From Campylobacterales bacterium (GTDB taxonomy: Bacteria > Campylobacterota > Campylobacteria > Campylobacterales > Nitratiruptoraceae): a stretch of 64,000 nucleotides of DNA. Positions 18,859 through 25,561 of the stretch are shown piece by piece. Both the position numbers and the translations under genes were made by a program. Position 1 is the first letter of the stretch; each line of letters starts with the position of its first letter. The DNA lies in assembly GCA_027065825.1 (NCBI GenBank), contig JAMONM010000058.1:38958-102957 (forward strand), given 5' to 3'. The notes under the pieces were generated by a model that saw nothing but the letters and a program-made list of their open reading frames with translations, had not been told where the DNA came from and did no database searches.

Positions 18859-19917
18859 TTATCTGGAAATGGAAGAGCTCTGCTGTTTGTCTTTGGCGTC
18901 TATCCAGATGTTAGGCACCGCTCCTCCTGGAGTAAGGAAAATTTTTGCGTCCTTGTTCTGTTTGAGAGCCTCGTTGAATTTGCCCTGAACTTCGATCTGT
19001 CTCAGTTTCAACAGCTCTGGTGTTACGCTCTTGCCGATCTCCAGGTTGGCCTGAGCTTTGGCTTTTGCTTCGATCATGATTCTGTCCGCTTCACCCTGGG
19101 CCCTGATCTTTTTGGCTTCGGCCTCACCTCTGGCTAGCGCGGCTCTCTTTTCGGCTTCCTGGCGAGCTCTTTCCACTTCGTATTTGACTCTTTCTGCTTC
19201 CTGTTTCGCTATCTGTACTCTCTCTATCTGCTCTTTTATCTTTGGCGGTAAAGAGATCTCTCTTAGCTGTACGGCCACAAGTTCTACCGGTTTGTTGGGT
19301 AGCTGGCTGATCTTTTCTCTGATTTGAGACTCTATCAGTTTGGCTATTTCGTTCCTTTTGATGGGCAGCTCTTCCGCCTTGTAGCGTCCCACCACGTTTC
19401 TAACCACTTCTCTGACCACCGCGTTGATGATCTTCTCCTCCCAGGCGAGGCCCCACGTAGCTATGGTTTGAGGGGCGCCGTGGGGATTTAGTTTGTACTG
19501 GACCGTCAGATCGATCGAAACCGGAAGTCCTCTCGCATCCAGAACTTCGATGGCCGGTTTTTCGATAATTCCGGCATTTACGTTGCCGAACGCCGTATCT
19601 CGTTCGGCTTTGTAGTTTATTATTCTGACTTTCGTGTCCACTTTTATAATCTTTTGTATTCCTGGAATGTAAAAGTGGATTCCGGGTTCCAGCGGCAGTG
19701 GATCGTATTTACCCGCCGTCACTTTTATTCCCACTTCGCCCGAATTGATGATTTCGTACGGTTTCGCTATCACCAAAAGAACCACGATTACGATCAATAC
19801 GTATATGTAGGTGGCTTTTTTCCCGAAATCCTTCATAAATTCGGGTACGTTGCTGTCGTTGTCGTTATCCTCCTCGTCCCTTCTTTTTTTGAAATAGTCG
19901 TTCAAATCGGCTGGCAT
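18859..19917 (-). CDS. SPFH/prohibitin family membrane protein
   Basis: N-terminal TM, SPFH domain (DARGLPVSIDLTVQY), C-terminal coiled coil (AKQEAERVKYEVERA). Confidence 0.92.
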   Translation of the reverse strand: MPADLNDYFKKRRDEEDNDNDSNVPEFMKDFGKKATYIYVLIVIVVLLVIAKPYEIINSGEVGIKVTAGKYDPLPLEPGIHFYIPGIQKIIKVDTKVRIINYKAERDTAFGNVNAGIIEKPAIEVLDARGLPVSIDLTVQYKLNPHGAPQTIATWGLAWEEKIINAVVREVVRNVVGRYKAEELPIKRNEIAKLIESQIREKISQLPNKPVELVAVQLREISLPPKIKEQIERVQIAKQEAERVKYEVERARQEAEKRAALARGEAEAKKIRAQGEADRIMIEAKAKAQANLEIGKSVTPELLKLRQIEVQGKFNEALKQNKDAKIFLTPGGAVPNIWIDAKDKQQSSSISR

Positions 19918-19933
19918 CTATACACTCCTTTGC

Positions 19934-20851
19934 CTAGTTTATATATGTGAGCATATGTTCGAAATCGGGGTCTTTGCCGTAGACCACGTCGAAATACGCC
20001 TTTTGAAGCTCTCTCGTCATATCGCCTCTGCGACCGTTTCCGATGACTCTGGCGTCAACCTCTCTTATCGGAGTAACTTCCGCGGCGGTTCCGGTAAAGA
20101 AAGCCTCGTCACAAATATACACTTCGTCTCTTGTGATTCTTCTTCTTTCGATTTTTATACCTTTTTTCTCAGCGATTTTTAAGACCGTATCCTGCGTGAT
20201 CGACTCGAGGGAGTTGTCGTTCGGGGGCGTGATCAAGACTCCGTCCCTGACTATAAAGAAACATTCGCCGCTCCCTTCGGCCACGAAGCCCTCTTCGTCC
20301 AGTAGCAGGGCCTCTTCGTATCCTGCTTCGAGCGCTTCGAACTTGGCCATCTGGCTGTTGAGGTAGTTGGCTACCGCTTTGGCTTTTCCCATTGTGGACT
20401 TTACCGAATTTCTGGCGAAAGAGCTGATTTTTACTCTAATACCGTTTTCCAGCCCTTCGTCTCCCAGGTAGCTTCCCCACTCCCACGCCGCTATGGCCAC
20501 GTTGACCGGAGCTTTTACGTGGTATAGTCCCATGATTCCGTATCCAAGATATATAAGAGGCCTAATGTATACGTTGGATTCGAATCGGTTTCTTTTTAGC
20601 AGTTCTATCTGAGCCTCTTCCAGCTCGCTGAGCGAATACGGCGGGGTAATGGCAGTGATCTTTGCGGAGTTGATTAGCCGCTTCGTATGGTCGGTAAGCC
20701 TAAAGATCGCCAGTCCCCGTTCGGTTTTATAGGCTCTCGTGCCTTCAAAGACACCGTTTCCGTAATGGAGCGTATGCGTCAGTACGTGTACTTTGGCGTC
20801 GTCCCATTTTACGAACTCTTTGTCCATCCAGATATAGTCGGCTTTTTTCAT
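19934..20851 (-). CDS. ilvE: Branched-chain amino acid aminotransferase
   Basis: HTLHYGNGVFEG, KAKAVANY, EGSGE, TGTAAEVTP motifs. Confidence 0.97.
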   Translation of the reverse strand: MKKADYIWMDKEFVKWDDAKVHVLTHTLHYGNGVFEGTRAYKTERGLAIFRLTDHTKRLINSAKITAITPPYSLSELEEAQIELLKRNRFESNVYIRPLIYLGYGIMGLYHVKAPVNVAIAAWEWGSYLGDEGLENGIRVKISSFARNSVKSTMGKAKAVANYLNSQMAKFEALEAGYEEALLLDEEGFVAEGSGECFFIVRDGVLITPPNDNSLESITQDTVLKIAEKKGIKIERRRITRDEVYICDEAFFTGTAAEVTPIREVDARVIGNGRRGDMTRELQKAYFDVVYGKDPDFEHMLTYIN

Positions 20852-20973
20852 CTTCTCTCCAAAAATGAATTTTAATCTCTAAAATTGGGATTAAGTCTAT
20901 CAAAATAATGATTAAAATATAATATGAACAACTTATAAAAAAGCCCGATCAGGAGAATAAAAGGAGATCAGCC

Positions 20974-22392
20974 ATGCAGGAGGCCAGGATATATTTCGGT
21001 TCCTCTCCGAAAAAGGGAGACACGTTACGCGAGATAAGGAGTCCTTTTAACGGCGAAGCGGTTACGCGTTATCCTGTCTGCGGCGCCGAGGACGCGAAGA
21101 GAGCCCTGGAAATAGCGAAAGAGGCTTTCGAAAAAAACAGAGAGGTCACGTTGGCTCAACGCGTGGCGTGGATCAGGGACGTAGCAGAAAGAATCAAAAG
21201 GGAAAAGGAGGAGTTCGCCCTGGCCATCACTAAAGAGGTGGCGAAACCGATAGCTTTTAGCAGAGTAGAGGTGGACAGATGCGTAGAGACTCTTACTCTT
21301 AGCGCCGACGCGGCGGTGGATCTGGGAGGAGAGACCATCAATACCGACGCCACCTTCAGCGGAAGGAAGAGCGTCGCGTTTTATAAAAGGGTTCCTCTTG
21401 GAGTGGTGGTGGCGATAACTCCGTTCAATTTTCCTCTCAATCTGGCCGCCCACAAACTTGGACCCGCGCTTGTGGCGGGCAACAGCGTGGTATTCAAACC
21501 GACTCCGGAAGCTCCCTATACCGGATATCTCTTGGCCAAAGCGTTTATAGAGAGCGAATACGCACCTAAAGATATGCTCAGCGTCGTTTACGGAGACGCG
21601 GAGGTGGGTTCGGCGCTCGTGGAGAGTCCGATTCCGCGCAAAATAAGTTTTACCGGCAGCGTCGAGGTGGGCAGAATAATTACAAGGAGCGCCGGAATAA
21701 AAAAGGTCTCTTTGGAGCTGGGAGGCAACGCGGCCACCTATATCGACAAAACGGCACAGATCGCTACCGCGGCCGCCAGATGCGCCGTAGGGGCTTTTAT
21801 CAACAGCGGACAGGTCTGCATATCCCTGCAAAGAATATATGTCCACGAAGATGTTTACGAGGAGTTCGCCGCCGAGTTGGCGCGTGAGACTTCGAAGCTG
21901 AAAGTCGGTGATCCCTACGATCCCGAAACGTTTATGGGGCCGCTGATCAACGAGGAGGCGGCTCAGCGAGCCTACAGATGGGTCCAAAGCGCTCTAAAGG
22001 CAGGCGCTCGTACCATACTTGAGCCCAAAGTGGAGGGCAGATACTTTTATCCGGCGATACTGGCCGACGTTACCGACGATATGCAGATAGTATGCGAGGA
22101 GGTTTTCGCTCCCGTAGTTAGCCTGGTCAGAGTTAGCGGTTACGAAGAGGCGATTAAACGGATGAACGACTCTCCCTACGGATTGCAGTTTTCCCTTTTT
22201 ACCAACGATCTGAGGCAGGCCGCCTCGTTTATAGAGGACGCGCAAGCGGGAGGAGTGGTTATCAACGATATACCAACCTTGAGATTCGATATACAGCCGT
22301 ACGGCGGAGTTAAGCTTTCGGGAATCGGTCGAGAGGGACCCAAGTTCGCTCTGGAAGACTATACGGAAATCAAATCGGTAGTGATTTTGTGA
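20974..22392 (+). CDS. NAD(P)-dependent aldehyde dehydrogenase (uncharacterised subfamily)
   Basis: ITPFNFP, FTGSVEVG, LELGG, catalytic GQVCIS, EEVFAP motifs. Confidence 0.92.
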   Translation: MQEARIYFGSSPKKGDTLREIRSPFNGEAVTRYPVCGAEDAKRALEIAKEAFEKNREVTLAQRVAWIRDVAERIKREKEEFALAITKEVAKPIAFSRVEVDRCVETLTLSADAAVDLGGETINTDATFSGRKSVAFYKRVPLGVVVAITPFNFPLNLAAHKLGPALVAGNSVVFKPTPEAPYTGYLLAKAFIESEYAPKDMLSVVYGDAEVGSALVESPIPRKISFTGSVEVGRIITRSAGIKKVSLELGGNAATYIDKTAQIATAAARCAVGAFINSGQVCISLQRIYVHEDVYEEFAAELARETSKLKVGDPYDPETFMGPLINEEAAQRAYRWVQSALKAGARTILEPKVEGRYFYPAILADVTDDMQIVCEEVFAPVVSLVRVSGYEEAIKRMNDSPYGLQFSLFTNDLRQAASFIEDAQAGGVVINDIPTLRFDIQPYGGVKLSGIGREGPKFALEDYTEIKSVVIL

Positions 22393-22393
22393 C

Positions 22394-22825
22394 ATGGTTG
22401 CCGTCAGTGCCTGTCTGTTGGGGCTTAACTGCAGATACGAGGGCGATCATAGACGCAGCGTGGATACGCAGGAGATTTTGAATAGACTCCAATGCAAAAA
22501 CGTTGTGCCATTCTGTCCTGAGGTAAATATTTTAGGAGCGCCGAGAGAACCGATAGATCTGTTTAGGTTTCACGATCGGATAGAGGCGGTAGGAAGAGAG
22601 AGCAAGAGGGTATACACGAAAAAGATTGAACTGGAAGCTGAAAGGTTTAAAAAGAGTTTCGACTCGGTAAACCTGTTCATATTCAAATCCAAATCGCCCA
22701 GCTGCGCTCTTTGCAGCGCCAAGGTCTATACTCCGGAAGGCGCCGTGATGGAAAAAAGAGCCAGTGGGATTTTTGCAAAAAAGATGAAAATTTGGTATAA
22801 AGATGCGAAATTTATGGAGATCTAA
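22394..22825 (+). CDS. DUF523 / 2-thiouracil desulfurase (TudS) family Fe-S protein
   Basis: SACLLGLNCRYEG, CPE, KSKSPSC motifs. Confidence 0.85.
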   Translation: MVAVSACLLGLNCRYEGDHRRSVDTQEILNRLQCKNVVPFCPEVNILGAPREPIDLFRFHDRIEAVGRESKRVYTKKIELEAERFKKSFDSVNLFIFKSKSPSCALCSAKVYTPEGAVMEKRASGIFAKKMKIWYKDAKFMEI

Positions 22826-22842
22826 AATCGAAGGAAACGAAA

Positions 22843-23313
22843 ATGTTGAAAGTAGGAGATTCCGCACCGCAGTTTTGCCTAAAAAACCAGGACGAGAACG
22901 AAATCTGCCTAAAGGATCTTAAAGGCAAGTGGGTGGTGCTCTATTTTTATCCAAAAGACAACACTCCCGGCTGTACCACCGAAGCTTGCGATTTTTCTGA
23001 GGAGTTTGACCGATTTGTTACTCTAGATGCGGTAATTTTGGGGGTCAGCCCCGATTCATGCGCCAGCCACAGAAAGTTTATAGATAAGAAAGGGCTGAAG
23101 ATAACTCTTTTGTGCGACGAGAACAAGGAGGTGCTCAAAGCGTACGGCGCATGGGGCAAAAAGAAGATGTACGGCAGAGAATACGAGGGAGTGATACGAA
23201 GCACCTTTTTGATAGATCCGGAGGGCAAGATAGCCCATATCTGGCCCAAAGTGAGAGTAAAGGGACACGTGGAGGAGGTTAAAAAGAGACTCGAAGAACT
23301 CAAGGAGGCGTAG
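22843..23313 (+). CDS. bcp: Thioredoxin-dependent peroxiredoxin Bcp
   Basis: YFYPKDNTPGCTTEAC motif. Confidence 0.96.
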   Translation: MLKVGDSAPQFCLKNQDENEICLKDLKGKWVVLYFYPKDNTPGCTTEACDFSEEFDRFVTLDAVILGVSPDSCASHRKFIDKKGLKITLLCDENKEVLKAYGAWGKKKMYGREYEGVIRSTFLIDPEGKIAHIWPKVRVKGHVEEVKKRLEELKEA

Positions 23314-23316
23314 ACG

Positions 23317-24588
23317 TTGGAGTATAGAAGCTATAACCAAAAAAGTTTTACCAAGGCGGAGAAAGTAAAAAGATATCTCTCCCCCTCCGAAATAGAGGAG
23401 ATCGAGGTAGTTTCCCAAGTTTTCCCGTTCAAGGTGAACAATTACGTAATCGAGAAGCTGATCGACTGGGACAACTATAGGGACGATCCGATATTTAGAC
23501 TCACTTTTCCTCATAGGGACATGCTCTTTGAGGATGATTACGAAAGAGTCAAGGCCTTGATGTTAAAAGGCGACAAGGAGGCTCTCAAAAGAGTCGTGGA
23601 CTCCATCAGACTGACTCTAAATCCCCATCCGGCGGATCAGCTCTCGAACGTACCAAAAATAGGGGAGAAGAGACTTTCTGGTTCTCAGCACAAATACAAA
23701 GAGACTATTTTGTTCTTTCCCAAACAGGGACAGACCTGTCACGCGTATTGCAGTTTCTGCTTTAGATGGCCCCAGTTTGTAGGAATGGAGGATCTAAAAT
23801 TCGCCTCCAAAGAGGTGGAGCTGTTAATAGAGTATATAAAAGCTCATCCGGAGATAACCGATATAATCTTTACGGGCGGAGATCCGCTGATAATGAGTAC
23901 GAGACTTCTTAGAGGGTACGTCGAACCTATTTTGGAGGCTAATATTCCGCATCTTAAAAATATCCGCTTTGGTACCAAGACGCTAGGCTTTTGGCCTTAT
24001 AGGTTCACTAGCGATCCGGATGCCCAAGATCTGCTGAATCTTTTTGAAGAGATTAGAAACAGGGGATACCATCTGGCCTTTATGGCTCACTTCAACCACT
24101 ATAGAGAGCTCGAAACTCCGGAGGTTAAGGAGGCGGTAGAGAAAATTTTAAAAACTGGAGCGGTAATCAGAACCCAGTCGCCCATTCTGAGACATATCAA
24201 CGACAGTGTCCACGTCTGGGAAAAGATGTGGAGAATGCAGGTAGAGATGGATATGATACCTTATTACATGTTCGTAGCCAGAGATACCGGGGCACAACAC
24301 TACTTCGGCGTTCCTCTGCACAGGGCTTGGGAGATATTCAGGGAGGCCTACTCCAGAGTAAGCGGAATAGCGAGAACCGTCAGAGGTCCGAGCATGTCTG
24401 CTTCTCCTGGCAAAATATGCGTAGAGGGCACGGCTGTTGTAGATGGGCGCAAAGTTTTTGTGCTGAGCATGATACAGGCCAAAAATCCATCCCTGGTAAA
24501 CAGACCTTTTTTCGCCGAATATAACGAAGAGGCCTACTGGATTGACGATTTAAAGCCCGCTTTTAGCGAAAAGTTCATCTTCGAATAG
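23317..24588 (+). CDS. KamA-family radical SAM/PLP aminomutase-like protein
   Basis: HKYKET, CHAYCSFCFR (CX3CX2C), FTGGDPL, AHFNH, TQSPILRHIND, PGK PLP-lysine. Confidence 0.85.
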   Translation: MEYRSYNQKSFTKAEKVKRYLSPSEIEEIEVVSQVFPFKVNNYVIEKLIDWDNYRDDPIFRLTFPHRDMLFEDDYERVKALMLKGDKEALKRVVDSIRLTLNPHPADQLSNVPKIGEKRLSGSQHKYKETILFFPKQGQTCHAYCSFCFRWPQFVGMEDLKFASKEVELLIEYIKAHPEITDIIFTGGDPLIMSTRLLRGYVEPILEANIPHLKNIRFGTKTLGFWPYRFTSDPDAQDLLNLFEEIRNRGYHLAFMAHFNHYRELETPEVKEAVEKILKTGAVIRTQSPILRHINDSVHVWEKMWRMQVEMDMIPYYMFVARDTGAQHYFGVPLHRAWEIFREAYSRVSGIARTVRGPSMSASPGKICVEGTAVVDGRKVFVLSMIQAKNPSLVNRPFFAEYNEEAYWIDDLKPAFSEKFIFE

Positions 24589-24601
24589 AGCGACTGCCGC
24601 G

Positions 24602-24622
24602 AAGGGATCTTCGATCCCTTTT
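24602..24622 (+). terminator. Probable intrinsic terminator after the KamA-like gene
   Basis: AAGGGATC-TTC-GATCCCTT stem followed by TT. Confidence 0.6.
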
Positions 24623-24670
24623 AAAAAGCTAAAATTAAGCATAAATTCAGTATAATCAGCTCGCCTTTTA

Positions 24671-24735
24671 CTACACACGCGTCAATCCTTGTAGAGGTTG
24701 CGGGAAACCGTTAAGGGGCGCGGAGGCAAAAACCC
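24671..24735 (+). ncRNA. rpsB 5' leader (t44-like S2 autoregulatory element)
   Basis: Follows TATAAT (24651-24656). Carries ACACAC at the 5' end and GGAGGCAAAAACCC at the 3' end, resembling the conserved t44/rpsB leader. Confidence 0.7.
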
Positions 24736-24754
24736 AAACATTCAAGGAGACACA

Positions 24755-25561
24755 ATGGTTACTATGAAGGACCTGCTAGAGTGCGGAGTTCACTTCGGTC
24801 ATCAGACCAGGAGATGGAACCCCAAAATGAAACCCTACATTTTCGGGGTTAGAAAGAATATTCACATAATCGACCTGCAAAAGACGCTGAGGTTTTTCAG
24901 ATATACCTACAACGTGGTCAGAGACGCCGCCAAAGAGGGACAGACAATACTCTTCGTCGGTACGAAAAAACAGGCTCAAAACGCGGTGGAAGAGTACGCC
25001 AAAAAGTGCGAAATGCCCTATGTTAATTCCAGATGGCTCGGCGGAACGCTGACGAACTTCAACACCATCAGAAAGTCGATCAGAAAACTCGAAGTTATAG
25101 AAGAGATGGAAAACAGCGGCCAGATGGATCTTTTGACCAAAAAAGAGGCCCTTATGCTAAAAAGAAGAAAAGAGAAACTGGAAAACTTTTTAGGCGGCAT
25201 AAGGGATATGAAGAAACTGCCGGATATGCTGTTTGTAATCGACGCTGTTAGAGAGCACATCGCCGTCAAAGAGGCTAACAAGCTGGGAATCCCGGTTGTT
25301 GCTCCTTTGGATACCAACTGCGATCCAGACGTTATAGACTATCCTATTCCCGGCAACGACGACGCCATAAGAAGCATACAGCTCTTTTGCAAAGAGATTT
25401 CCGAAGCCATCATTGAGGGCAGAGAACTCAGAGCGCAAGAACTGGCCGAAGAGGAAGAGGCAGAGAGCGAAAACCAGGAGGTAACTCAAGAGGAGATCGA
25501 AGAGACCATAGCAGAGGCCAAAGAGGAAGCGGCCCAAGAAGAAGCCAAGGAGGAAGAGTAA
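24755..25561 (+). CDS. rpsB: 30S ribosomal protein S2
   Basis: [38 protein letters not shown]; acidic tail; start at ATG 24755 with AAGGAG RBS. Confidence 0.98.

Follow-up and report, generated by a model that had tools for sequence, protein, structure and literature searches.

The stretch of DNA analysed here, hereafter the window, comprises 64,000 nucleotides (nt) of contig JAMONM010000058.1 (NCBI GenBank assembly GCA_027065825.1, positions 38,958 to 102,957, forward strand) from a Campylobacterales bacterium of the Nitratiruptoraceae, a family of marine vent Campylobacterota. It carries a gene for a radical S-adenosylmethionine (SAM)/pyridoxal 5'-phosphate (PLP) aminomutase with the fold of the lysine 2,3-aminomutase KamA, and the 1.6-Mb host genome holds no other KamA-family gene. 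The reading that we favour, with some confidence, is that the gene encodes a glutamate 2,3-aminomutase making beta-glutamate, and not a lysine enzyme. New in this analysis are a check of the substrate pocket based on EpmB, cyclic di-AMP (c-di-AMP) riboswitches upstream of orthologues, a test by means of a macrolactam cluster, and a clade of vent Campylobacterota and Aquificota. The gene and the residues on which the argument turns are as follows.

23317..24588, + strand: gene for the KamA-fold radical SAM/PLP aminomutase, 423 amino acids (aa); proposed IdnL4-type glutamate 2,3-aminomutase
23737..23760, + strand: CX3CX2C motif with C141/C145/C148, identified in the sequence; predicted to bind the [4Fe-4S] cluster
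23764..23766, + strand: Arg150, equivalent of KamA Arg134 by HMMER alignment to 2A5H
24280..24285, + strand: Arg322-Asp323 in an RDTG motif; Arg322 lies at the KamA Asp293 and EpmB Asp position in gapless alignments
24385..24414, + strand: GPSMSASPGK segment, which holds Ser359 and the PLP lysine Lys366
24391-24393, + strand: Ser359, at the KamA Asp330 and EpmB Glu position
24412-24414, + strand: Lys366, PLP-binding lysine of PGK, at the KamA Lys337 position by a constant offset of 29 and by the spacing in EpmB

Fold and substrate pocket

Scoring against the NCBIfam models gave 146.9 bits for the KamA superfamily (TIGR00238, cut-off 199.2), and the protein is, by its predicted family relationships, a divergent branch of that superfamily. 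All models of defined function scored far below their cut-offs, namely lysine 2,3-aminomutase AblA (TIGR03820, 126 bits vs 525), an AblA-like-2 model (121 vs 396), arginine 2,3-aminomutase (TIGR04468, 112 vs 600), glutamate aminomutase Eam (TIGR04368, 111 vs 650, and 105 bits in the genome search) and EpmB (TIGR03821, 110 vs 369). Pfam returned a weak Radical_SAM match alone and no LAM_C domain in the aminomutase. Protein atlas labels for the protein are limited to a generic KamA, and family members are labelled 'lysine 2,3-aminomutase' or 'KamA family protein' in the databases.

The sole solved relative found by sequence was the lysine 2,3-aminomutase of Clostridium subterminale (2A5H, E 7.5e-25). 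An AlphaFold2 model built from 48 relatives (predicted local distance difference test score 95) matched this structure over nearly its full length, including the N-terminal domain (Foldseek E 4e-21); VIA aligned model residues 1-392 with chain residues 17-390 at Z 35.1 and a root mean square deviation of 3.3 Å over 324 residues, and the next best radical SAM fold reached Z 14.5.

Residues 303-351 align without gaps to KamA residues 274-322 of 2A5H, both by phmmer and with the family profile, and the HMMER alignments to 2A5H place R322 at D293 and R150 at R134, a residue which we take from the KamA structure to bind the substrate alpha-carboxylate. Carrying the offset of 29 onward, beyond the stretch covered by HMMER, places K366 at K337 and S359 at D330; the KamA letters around Asp330 and Lys337 are here presumed, and their count agrees with KamA numbering. 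As an independent pocket reference, Escherichia coli EpmB, a true lysine aminomutase, was compared by BLASTP. Its PYYLHVLD pairs with PYYMFVAR of the window protein, which puts an EpmB Asp at the R322 position, the distance from the SGY/SGI motif to the PLP lysine is 15 residues in both proteins, and the eighth residue past this motif is Glu in EpmB and S359 in the aminomutase. The replacement of both lysine-binding acidic residues by Arg322 and Ser359 is thus confirmed at the level of sequence, where it excludes lysine specificity.

Conservation was counted in 201 relatives with identities of 50% or higher, drawn from a dozen phyla. Of these, 200 keep R322, 199 keep S359 and 194 keep D323, while Thr324, Gly325, Gly357, Pro358, K366, R150 and the three cluster cysteines are kept in all 201; the near-invariance of R322 and S359 argues that the substitutions are not due to chance but represent a fixed property of the family. 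Three of the four cysteines in the protein belong to the cluster motif, and C368 is the sole cysteine beyond K366. In more distant family members, the Cys triad or the PLP lysine is missing. The first-pass annotation, made from the window sequence, had described the CX3CX2C motif and the PLP lysine as intact, had placed Arg322 at KamA Asp293 and Ser359 at Asp330, and had proposed a structural comparison with the KamA crystal structure as a check; the comparison gave the 2A5H match, and the three residue assignments were borne out by the alignments, the EpmB spacing and the conservation counts.

Compared with KamA/AblA (2A5H) and EpmB, the window protein shares the fold, the N-terminal domain, CX3CX2C, the PLP lysine and the carboxylate arginine, but it has only 22-29% identity, carries Arg322/Ser359 for both acidic ligands, lacks the LAM_C domain and has no AblB or EpmA partner. 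With Eam of Clostridioides difficile it would share the proposed reaction, the cofactors and the fold family, yet its score marks it as a non-member of the Eam model. Ruzicka and Frey reportedly assigned in 2007 Lys and Asn to the specificity positions of Eam, as compared with Arg and Ser here, and we propose that the Arg/Ser pocket may be a different solution to carboxylate binding. The glutamate 2,3-aminomutase of Methanococcus maripaludis is said to carry an N-terminal extension of ~160 aa. This radical SAM enzyme is reported to provide beta-glutamate for salt tolerance (Tunckanat et al. 2022, Biochemistry 61:1077), which is the role proposed for the aminomutase here.

Relatives, riboswitches and beta-glutamate

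A tblastn search against plasmids retrieved family members in actinomycetes, Burkholderia and Mycetohabitans. The homologue on plasmid NZ_CP108009.1 of Streptomyces sp. NBC_00334 (45% identity over 413 residues, E 6e-147) contains the motifs ERDTG and GPVMSTTPGK, which leaves RDTG and GP(S/V)MSxxPGK common to both proteins, and it falls inside the 101-row family clade of the tree with support 95. Its cluster comprises seven type I polyketide synthase (PKS) genes, a VinJ-like peptidase (proline-iminopeptidase-family hydrolase), an IdnL3-like PLP 'aminotransferase' directly downstream of the aminomutase, two AMP-binding enzymes, a free acyl carrier protein (ACP), a VinK-like ACP malonyltransferase-like gene, a glycosyltransferase and dTDP-sugar genes. 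By gene content, the cluster has all hallmarks of a beta-amino-acid-primed macrolactam pathway and is predicted to be incednine-like. Feeding experiments traced the incednine starter from L-glutamate via beta-glutamate to 3-aminobutyrate, and decarboxylation of beta-glutamate by IdnL3 was seen in vitro. A knockout of idnL4 confirmed the need for this gene in making the 3-aminobutyrate starter; the function of IdnL4 itself rests on the knockout and feeding experiments (PMC11284099).

With the IdnL4 type the window protein shares the protein family and, via the cluster homologue, the RDTG and GPxMSxxPGK pocket motifs; unlike it, the window protein lies in a separate core clade, and PKS, IdnL3-type decarboxylase and carrier-protein genes are missing from the surroundings of its gene. 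The protein belongs to no curated functional family and, on the motifs and tree position, is assigned here to the IdnL4-type enzymes, for which the genetics point to glutamate.

Other actinomycete copies lie in different surroundings. On plasmid NZ_CP024895.1 of Amycolatopsis sp. AA4 (255726-274889), a family member lies in a catabolic-looking cluster with a Glu/Leu/Phe/Val-dehydrogenase-family protein, two CoA-ester lyases, two MaoC dehydratases, a CoA transferase, a PLP aminotransferase, a GntR regulator and major facilitator superfamily transporters, which may represent a degradation route for a C5-dicarboxylate or beta-glutamate. On plasmid CP109198.1 of Streptomyces cellulosae and a plasmid of Streptomyces sp. 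NBC_01431, members lie at the edges of a non-ribosomal peptide synthetase (NRPS) cluster and a type III PKS/NRPS cluster, whose contents include a Dpg-like enoyl-CoA hydratase set and ATP-grasp plus NRPS genes, a context suggestive of non-ribosomal peptides built with beta-glutamate or a related beta-amino acid.

A one-genome-per-species scan revealed at least 598 loci with the gene, and the neighbourhood results given here rest on the best 80 of these (54-73% identity). The 80 loci stem from Bacteroidota, Ignavibacteriota, Balneolota, Chloroflexota, Myxococcota, Persephonella, Nautiliaceae and Gammaproteobacteria (Thioalkalispiraceae, Thiohalobacter), and from the archaeal Nitrosopumilales and Heimdallarchaeota. 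Riboswitches for c-di-AMP control osmotic-stress genes. In five Chloroflexota loci such a riboswitch (RF00379, 69-97 bits; gathering score 38) immediately precedes the aminomutase orthologue on the same strand, with a GC-rich terminator hairpin and then a ribosome-binding site leading up to the start codon and no gene between. At one dehalococcoidial locus, a second c-di-AMP riboswitch (L063:4465-4599, - strand) faces away from the aminomutase and heads a class-III (omega-type) aminotransferase gene (L063:3126-4403, - strand), and two amino-group enzymes are thus predicted to stand back to back under c-di-AMP control. Tandem Na+/c-di-AMP riboswitches have been described upstream of ablA in Dehalobacter, and eam, the beta-glutamate gene, is among the genes associated with Na+ riboswitches (PMC9337991); beyond this paper, a full-text literature search for c-di-AMP riboswitches together with aminomutases returned only a Bacillus subtilis genome review.

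Clustering of 1223 neighbouring open reading frames from the 80 loci revealed no universal partner gene, as a one-enzyme pathway would lead one to expect and in keeping with a central metabolite being converted in a single step. About a dozen Nitrosopumilales have an MscS-type channel gene near the aminomutase in divergent orientation, and Na+/H+ exchanger genes were found in five loci. Type I glutamine synthetase genes occur near the aminomutase in seven Nitrosopumilales and one Dehalococcoidales, and in three of five Nitrosopumilales genomes (G041, G042 and G045; e.g. L051:11391-12836) the adjacent GlnA is a second, lower-scoring paralogue; the host genome of the window has one glutamine synthetase. 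In Methanohalophilus, glutamine synthetase turns beta-glutamate into beta-glutamine (Roberts' review, PMC1224877).

A class-I aspartate-type aminotransferase-like gene lies near the aminomutase in 14 loci, in 10 of them immediately adjacent and often overlapping the aminomutase stop codon, with hosts among Ignavibacteria, Saprospiraceae, Chitinophagaceae and one Nitrosopumilus. The stop-overlapping genes of Ignavibacteria and some Bacteroidota encode proteins of ~435 aa (L045:3918-5228, L067:11316-12623, L084:9264-10580, L090:11316-12632 and L057:3202-4560, among others). An orthology of this partner to the IdnL3-type beta-glutamate decarboxylase was not supported, as it has 32% identity to the IdnL3-like enzyme and the housekeeping aminotransferase of the host is about as similar (34%). 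Small GNAT neighbours were rejected as AblB equivalents, since they are adjacent in only 4 of 77 loci.

Each of five Nitrosopumilales genomes searched has the aminomutase as its sole KamA-family gene. Among 201 sampled Nitrososphaeria, 107 carry a single copy, and the identities fall gradually from 100% to 65%, the pattern that vertical inheritance within a large clade would produce. In Nitrosopumilus maritimus, beta-glutamic acid exceeded all other identified metabolites in abundance (730 mM), and beta-glutamate rises with ocean depth (Heal et al., PMC8269262). As of 2024, only ectoine and hydroxyectoine were listed as osmolytes identified so far in ammonia-oxidising archaea (PMC11428151), and the searchable literature names no gene for beta-glutamate synthesis in ammonia-oxidising archaea or bacteria. 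Taken together, the riboswitches, channels, exchangers and the findings in ammonia oxidisers suggest that the core clade uses beta-glutamate as a compatible solute. Persephonella and Aquifex reportedly accumulate beta-glutamate as well, for which our search for open papers on either genus found no confirmation.

Local operon and distribution

In the window, the aminomutase gene follows three genes on the same strand and is followed by a hairpin, assigned as listed below.

20974-22392, + strand: aldehyde dehydrogenase (Pfam, NCBIfam)
22394-22825, + strand: TudS-like desulfidase (thiouracil desulfidase; Pfam, NCBIfam)
22843-23313, + strand: Bcp/PrxQ peroxiredoxin (Pfam, NCBIfam)
24602..24622, + strand: weak, short terminator-like hairpin with T-run, identified in the sequence between the aminomutase stop codon and rpsB

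The gaps of 1, 17 and 3 nt, the last between the bcp stop and the TTG start codon of the aminomutase, suggest that the four genes probably form one operon with the aminomutase as its last gene. The N-termini of orthologues (MEYR.../MKYR...) coincide with the start residue chosen here, and rpsB-tsf come next after the hairpin. Promoter-like and terminator-like sites in the operon region were no commoner than in shuffled sequences, and Rfam elements were absent from positions 19500-25500 of the window. Pfam and NCBIfam searches of the neighbours revealed no efp, epmA or lysine-fermentation genes, in agreement with the first-pass annotation, and the EpmA (genX) model gave no match above its cut-off in the host genome. 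The same four-gene order recurs in three relatives and is limited to part of the Nitratiruptoraceae; other Nitratiruptor genomes have the aminomutase behind gap-gpmA, and a Caminibacter-like genome has it flanked by a ThiF-family gene and pdxJ. Given these varied contexts, the link to the three upstream genes is probably non-functional. As a side observation, the TudS-like desulfidase and the Bcp peroxiredoxin are predicted to be co-transcribed with an oxygen-sensitive radical SAM gene.

The nearest proteins are those of Nitrosophilus labii (79% identity) and Nitratiruptor (72-76%). Within the Nitratiruptoraceae the distribution is patchy (15 of 21 other genomes); the gene was found in one of three other complete or near-complete genomes at the genus level and in one of 19 other families at the order level. 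Two Nitratiruptor-group genomes match the first 78 residues only (G018:C193:7845-8078 and G019:C83:1806-2039; 55-58% identity, open frames of 85-92 aa), which may be remnants of a lost aminomutase gene. A HMMER search over 1.8 billion representatives yielded 301 clusters at E < 1e-30, above the onset of canonical KamA-level scores. In a maximum-likelihood tree the window protein lies inside a Campylobacterota clade (support 100) that is sister to the Hydrogenothermaceae of the Aquificota (support 97), and this core clade stands next to Chloroflexota, Bacteroidota and Nitrosopumilales. Such grouping of copies from vent thermophiles across two phyla suggests a putative gene transfer among them. 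One metagenomic protein, P0125 (882 aa), is a natural fusion in which an L-lysine/ornithine N-monooxygenase domain (PF13434, E 2.5e-100) is joined to a complete aminomutase of the family (48% identity) that retains ERDTG.

Proposed function and rival explanations

Sequence and fold show that the window protein has a [4Fe-4S] cluster site for SAM cleavage (C141/C145/C148), a PLP lysine (K366), the arginine for the alpha-carboxylate (R150) and the KamA fold. In the mechanism proposed here, the side-chain pocket, which is acidic in lysine aminomutases and is rebuilt with the invariant Arg322 (plus Asp323 and Ser359), would bind the gamma-carboxylate of glutamate; Arg at the Asp293 position offers a simple charge-reversal rationale for this substrate. 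Transfer of the amino group from C2 to C3 of L-glutamate would give beta-glutamate in one step and with no partner enzyme, and the product would accumulate in the marine vent chemolithoautotroph as an anionic compatible solute and as the counter-ion to K+. The parts of this proposal differ in strength. That the enzyme acts on a non-lysine amino acid we hold to be highly probable, glutamate is its probable substrate, and the chances of an osmolyte role in the host organism appear evenly divided. The first-pass annotation had proposed a non-lysine, acidic or otherwise different substrate and had named beta-glutamate as one option. This proposal gains support from several independent lines, namely the scores far below every lysine-type cut-off, the grouping with the aminomutase of an incednine-type macrolactam cluster, the c-di-AMP riboswitches and the sole KamA-family gene in Nitrosopumilales.

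Several findings weigh against the glutamate and osmolyte proposal. IdnL4 activity was not observed in vitro (PMC11284099), and the family is without a demonstrated activity. The comparison with IdnL4 was made via a homologue from a cluster of like gene content and not with IdnL4 itself, and the actinobacterial clade is a neighbouring branch outside the subclade of the window protein. Asp323, conserved beside Arg322, could face the pocket too. The three operon partners are uninformative on osmolytes, no riboswitch, channel or transporter lies beside the aminomutase in the window, and the gene is absent from some closely related complete genomes. Early nuclear magnetic resonance work in methanogens spoke against a glutamate aminomutase route (PMC1224877), and our literature search found no report of beta-glutamate measurements in Nitratiruptoraceae.

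An alternative that we rate as fairly unlikely is an enzyme that shifts the amino group of aspartate, 2-aminoadipate, glutamine, an N-modified diamino acid or the like to give another beta-amino acid. A zwitterionic or amide side chain could be held by the Arg322-Asp323 pair, P0125 is fused to a Lys/Orn N-monooxygenase domain, the natural-product contexts vary between NRPS and type III PKS clusters, and the lack of a known in vitro activity extends to IdnL4 (PMC11284099). However, the incednine-type cluster, for which the chemistry is known, starts from glutamate; beta-glutamate is the only beta-amino acid with reported high levels in an organism whose group has solely this KamA-family gene, and the alpha-carboxylate Arg and the PLP Lys are standard. 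An interconversion of glutamate and beta-glutamate that serves catabolism or building-block supply instead of osmoprotection is suggested by the Amycolatopsis copy amid dehydrogenase, CoA-transferase, MaoC and CoA-ester lyase genes behind a GntR regulator, by the Streptomyces copy that feeds polyketide starters and by the translational coupling to the aminotransferase-like gene in Ignavibacteria and Bacteroidota. This possibility appears distinctly improbable for the window gene, since no comparable catabolic or PKS genes flank it in the 1.6-Mb genome of the vent chemolithoautotroph host, and in the core clade the associated riboswitches, MscS channels and Na+/H+ exchangers speak for osmotic control.

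The remaining alternatives concern the enzyme class. Distant members that lose the Cys triad or the PLP lysine, in a family that is biochemically uncharacterised, leave a slim chance that the KamA fold here serves a chemistry other than a 1,2-amino shift, but the core family keeps every catalytic element of an aminomutase (cluster Cys, PLP Lys and carboxylate Arg). A lysine 2,3-aminomutase of the KamA/AblA or EpmB-like type would agree with the fold and with the source annotations as 'lysine 2,3-aminomutase', but we give it hardly any credence, as both acidic lysine-binding positions are replaced, the hidden Markov model scores lie far under the cut-offs, LAM_C is missing, one Cys follows the PLP lysine, no EpmA above cut-off occurs in the host genome, and small GNATs are adjacent in 4 of 77 loci.

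If the glutamate proposal is extended to the whole family, it would constitute a one-enzyme route to beta-glutamate in marine ammonia-oxidising archaea, in thermophilic vent bacteria (Nitratiruptoraceae, Nautiliaceae and Hydrogenothermaceae) and in many Bacteroidota, Chloroflexota and Ignavibacteriota, switched on by low c-di-AMP in some of them and with an Arg/Ser pocket for glutamate of separate origin from the Lys/Asn pocket of clostridial Eam, a generalisation for which we see roughly balanced prospects. If true, this route would explain much of the beta-glutamate of the deep ocean and sediments, the label 'lysine 2,3-aminomutase' would hide a probable osmolyte pathway spread over many phyla, and beta-glutamate accumulation would be predicted for vent Campylobacterota. 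The Arg/Ser pocket would also offer a second natural template for the engineering of radical SAM aminomutases toward acidic beta-amino acids.

A short KamA-like clade, labelled 'lysine 2,3-aminomutase' as well, was observed on a Rhizobium etli plasmid (L105:2219-3361) and in Paenibacillus (L106:2414-3580). These homologues were considered as lysine-type references and rejected as another non-lysine clade, since their residue at the Asp293 position is Arg (GRP/NRP); their PLP lysine stands in MSHxxGK. The Rhizobium etli copy lies ~2 kb from an ectoine synthase gene.

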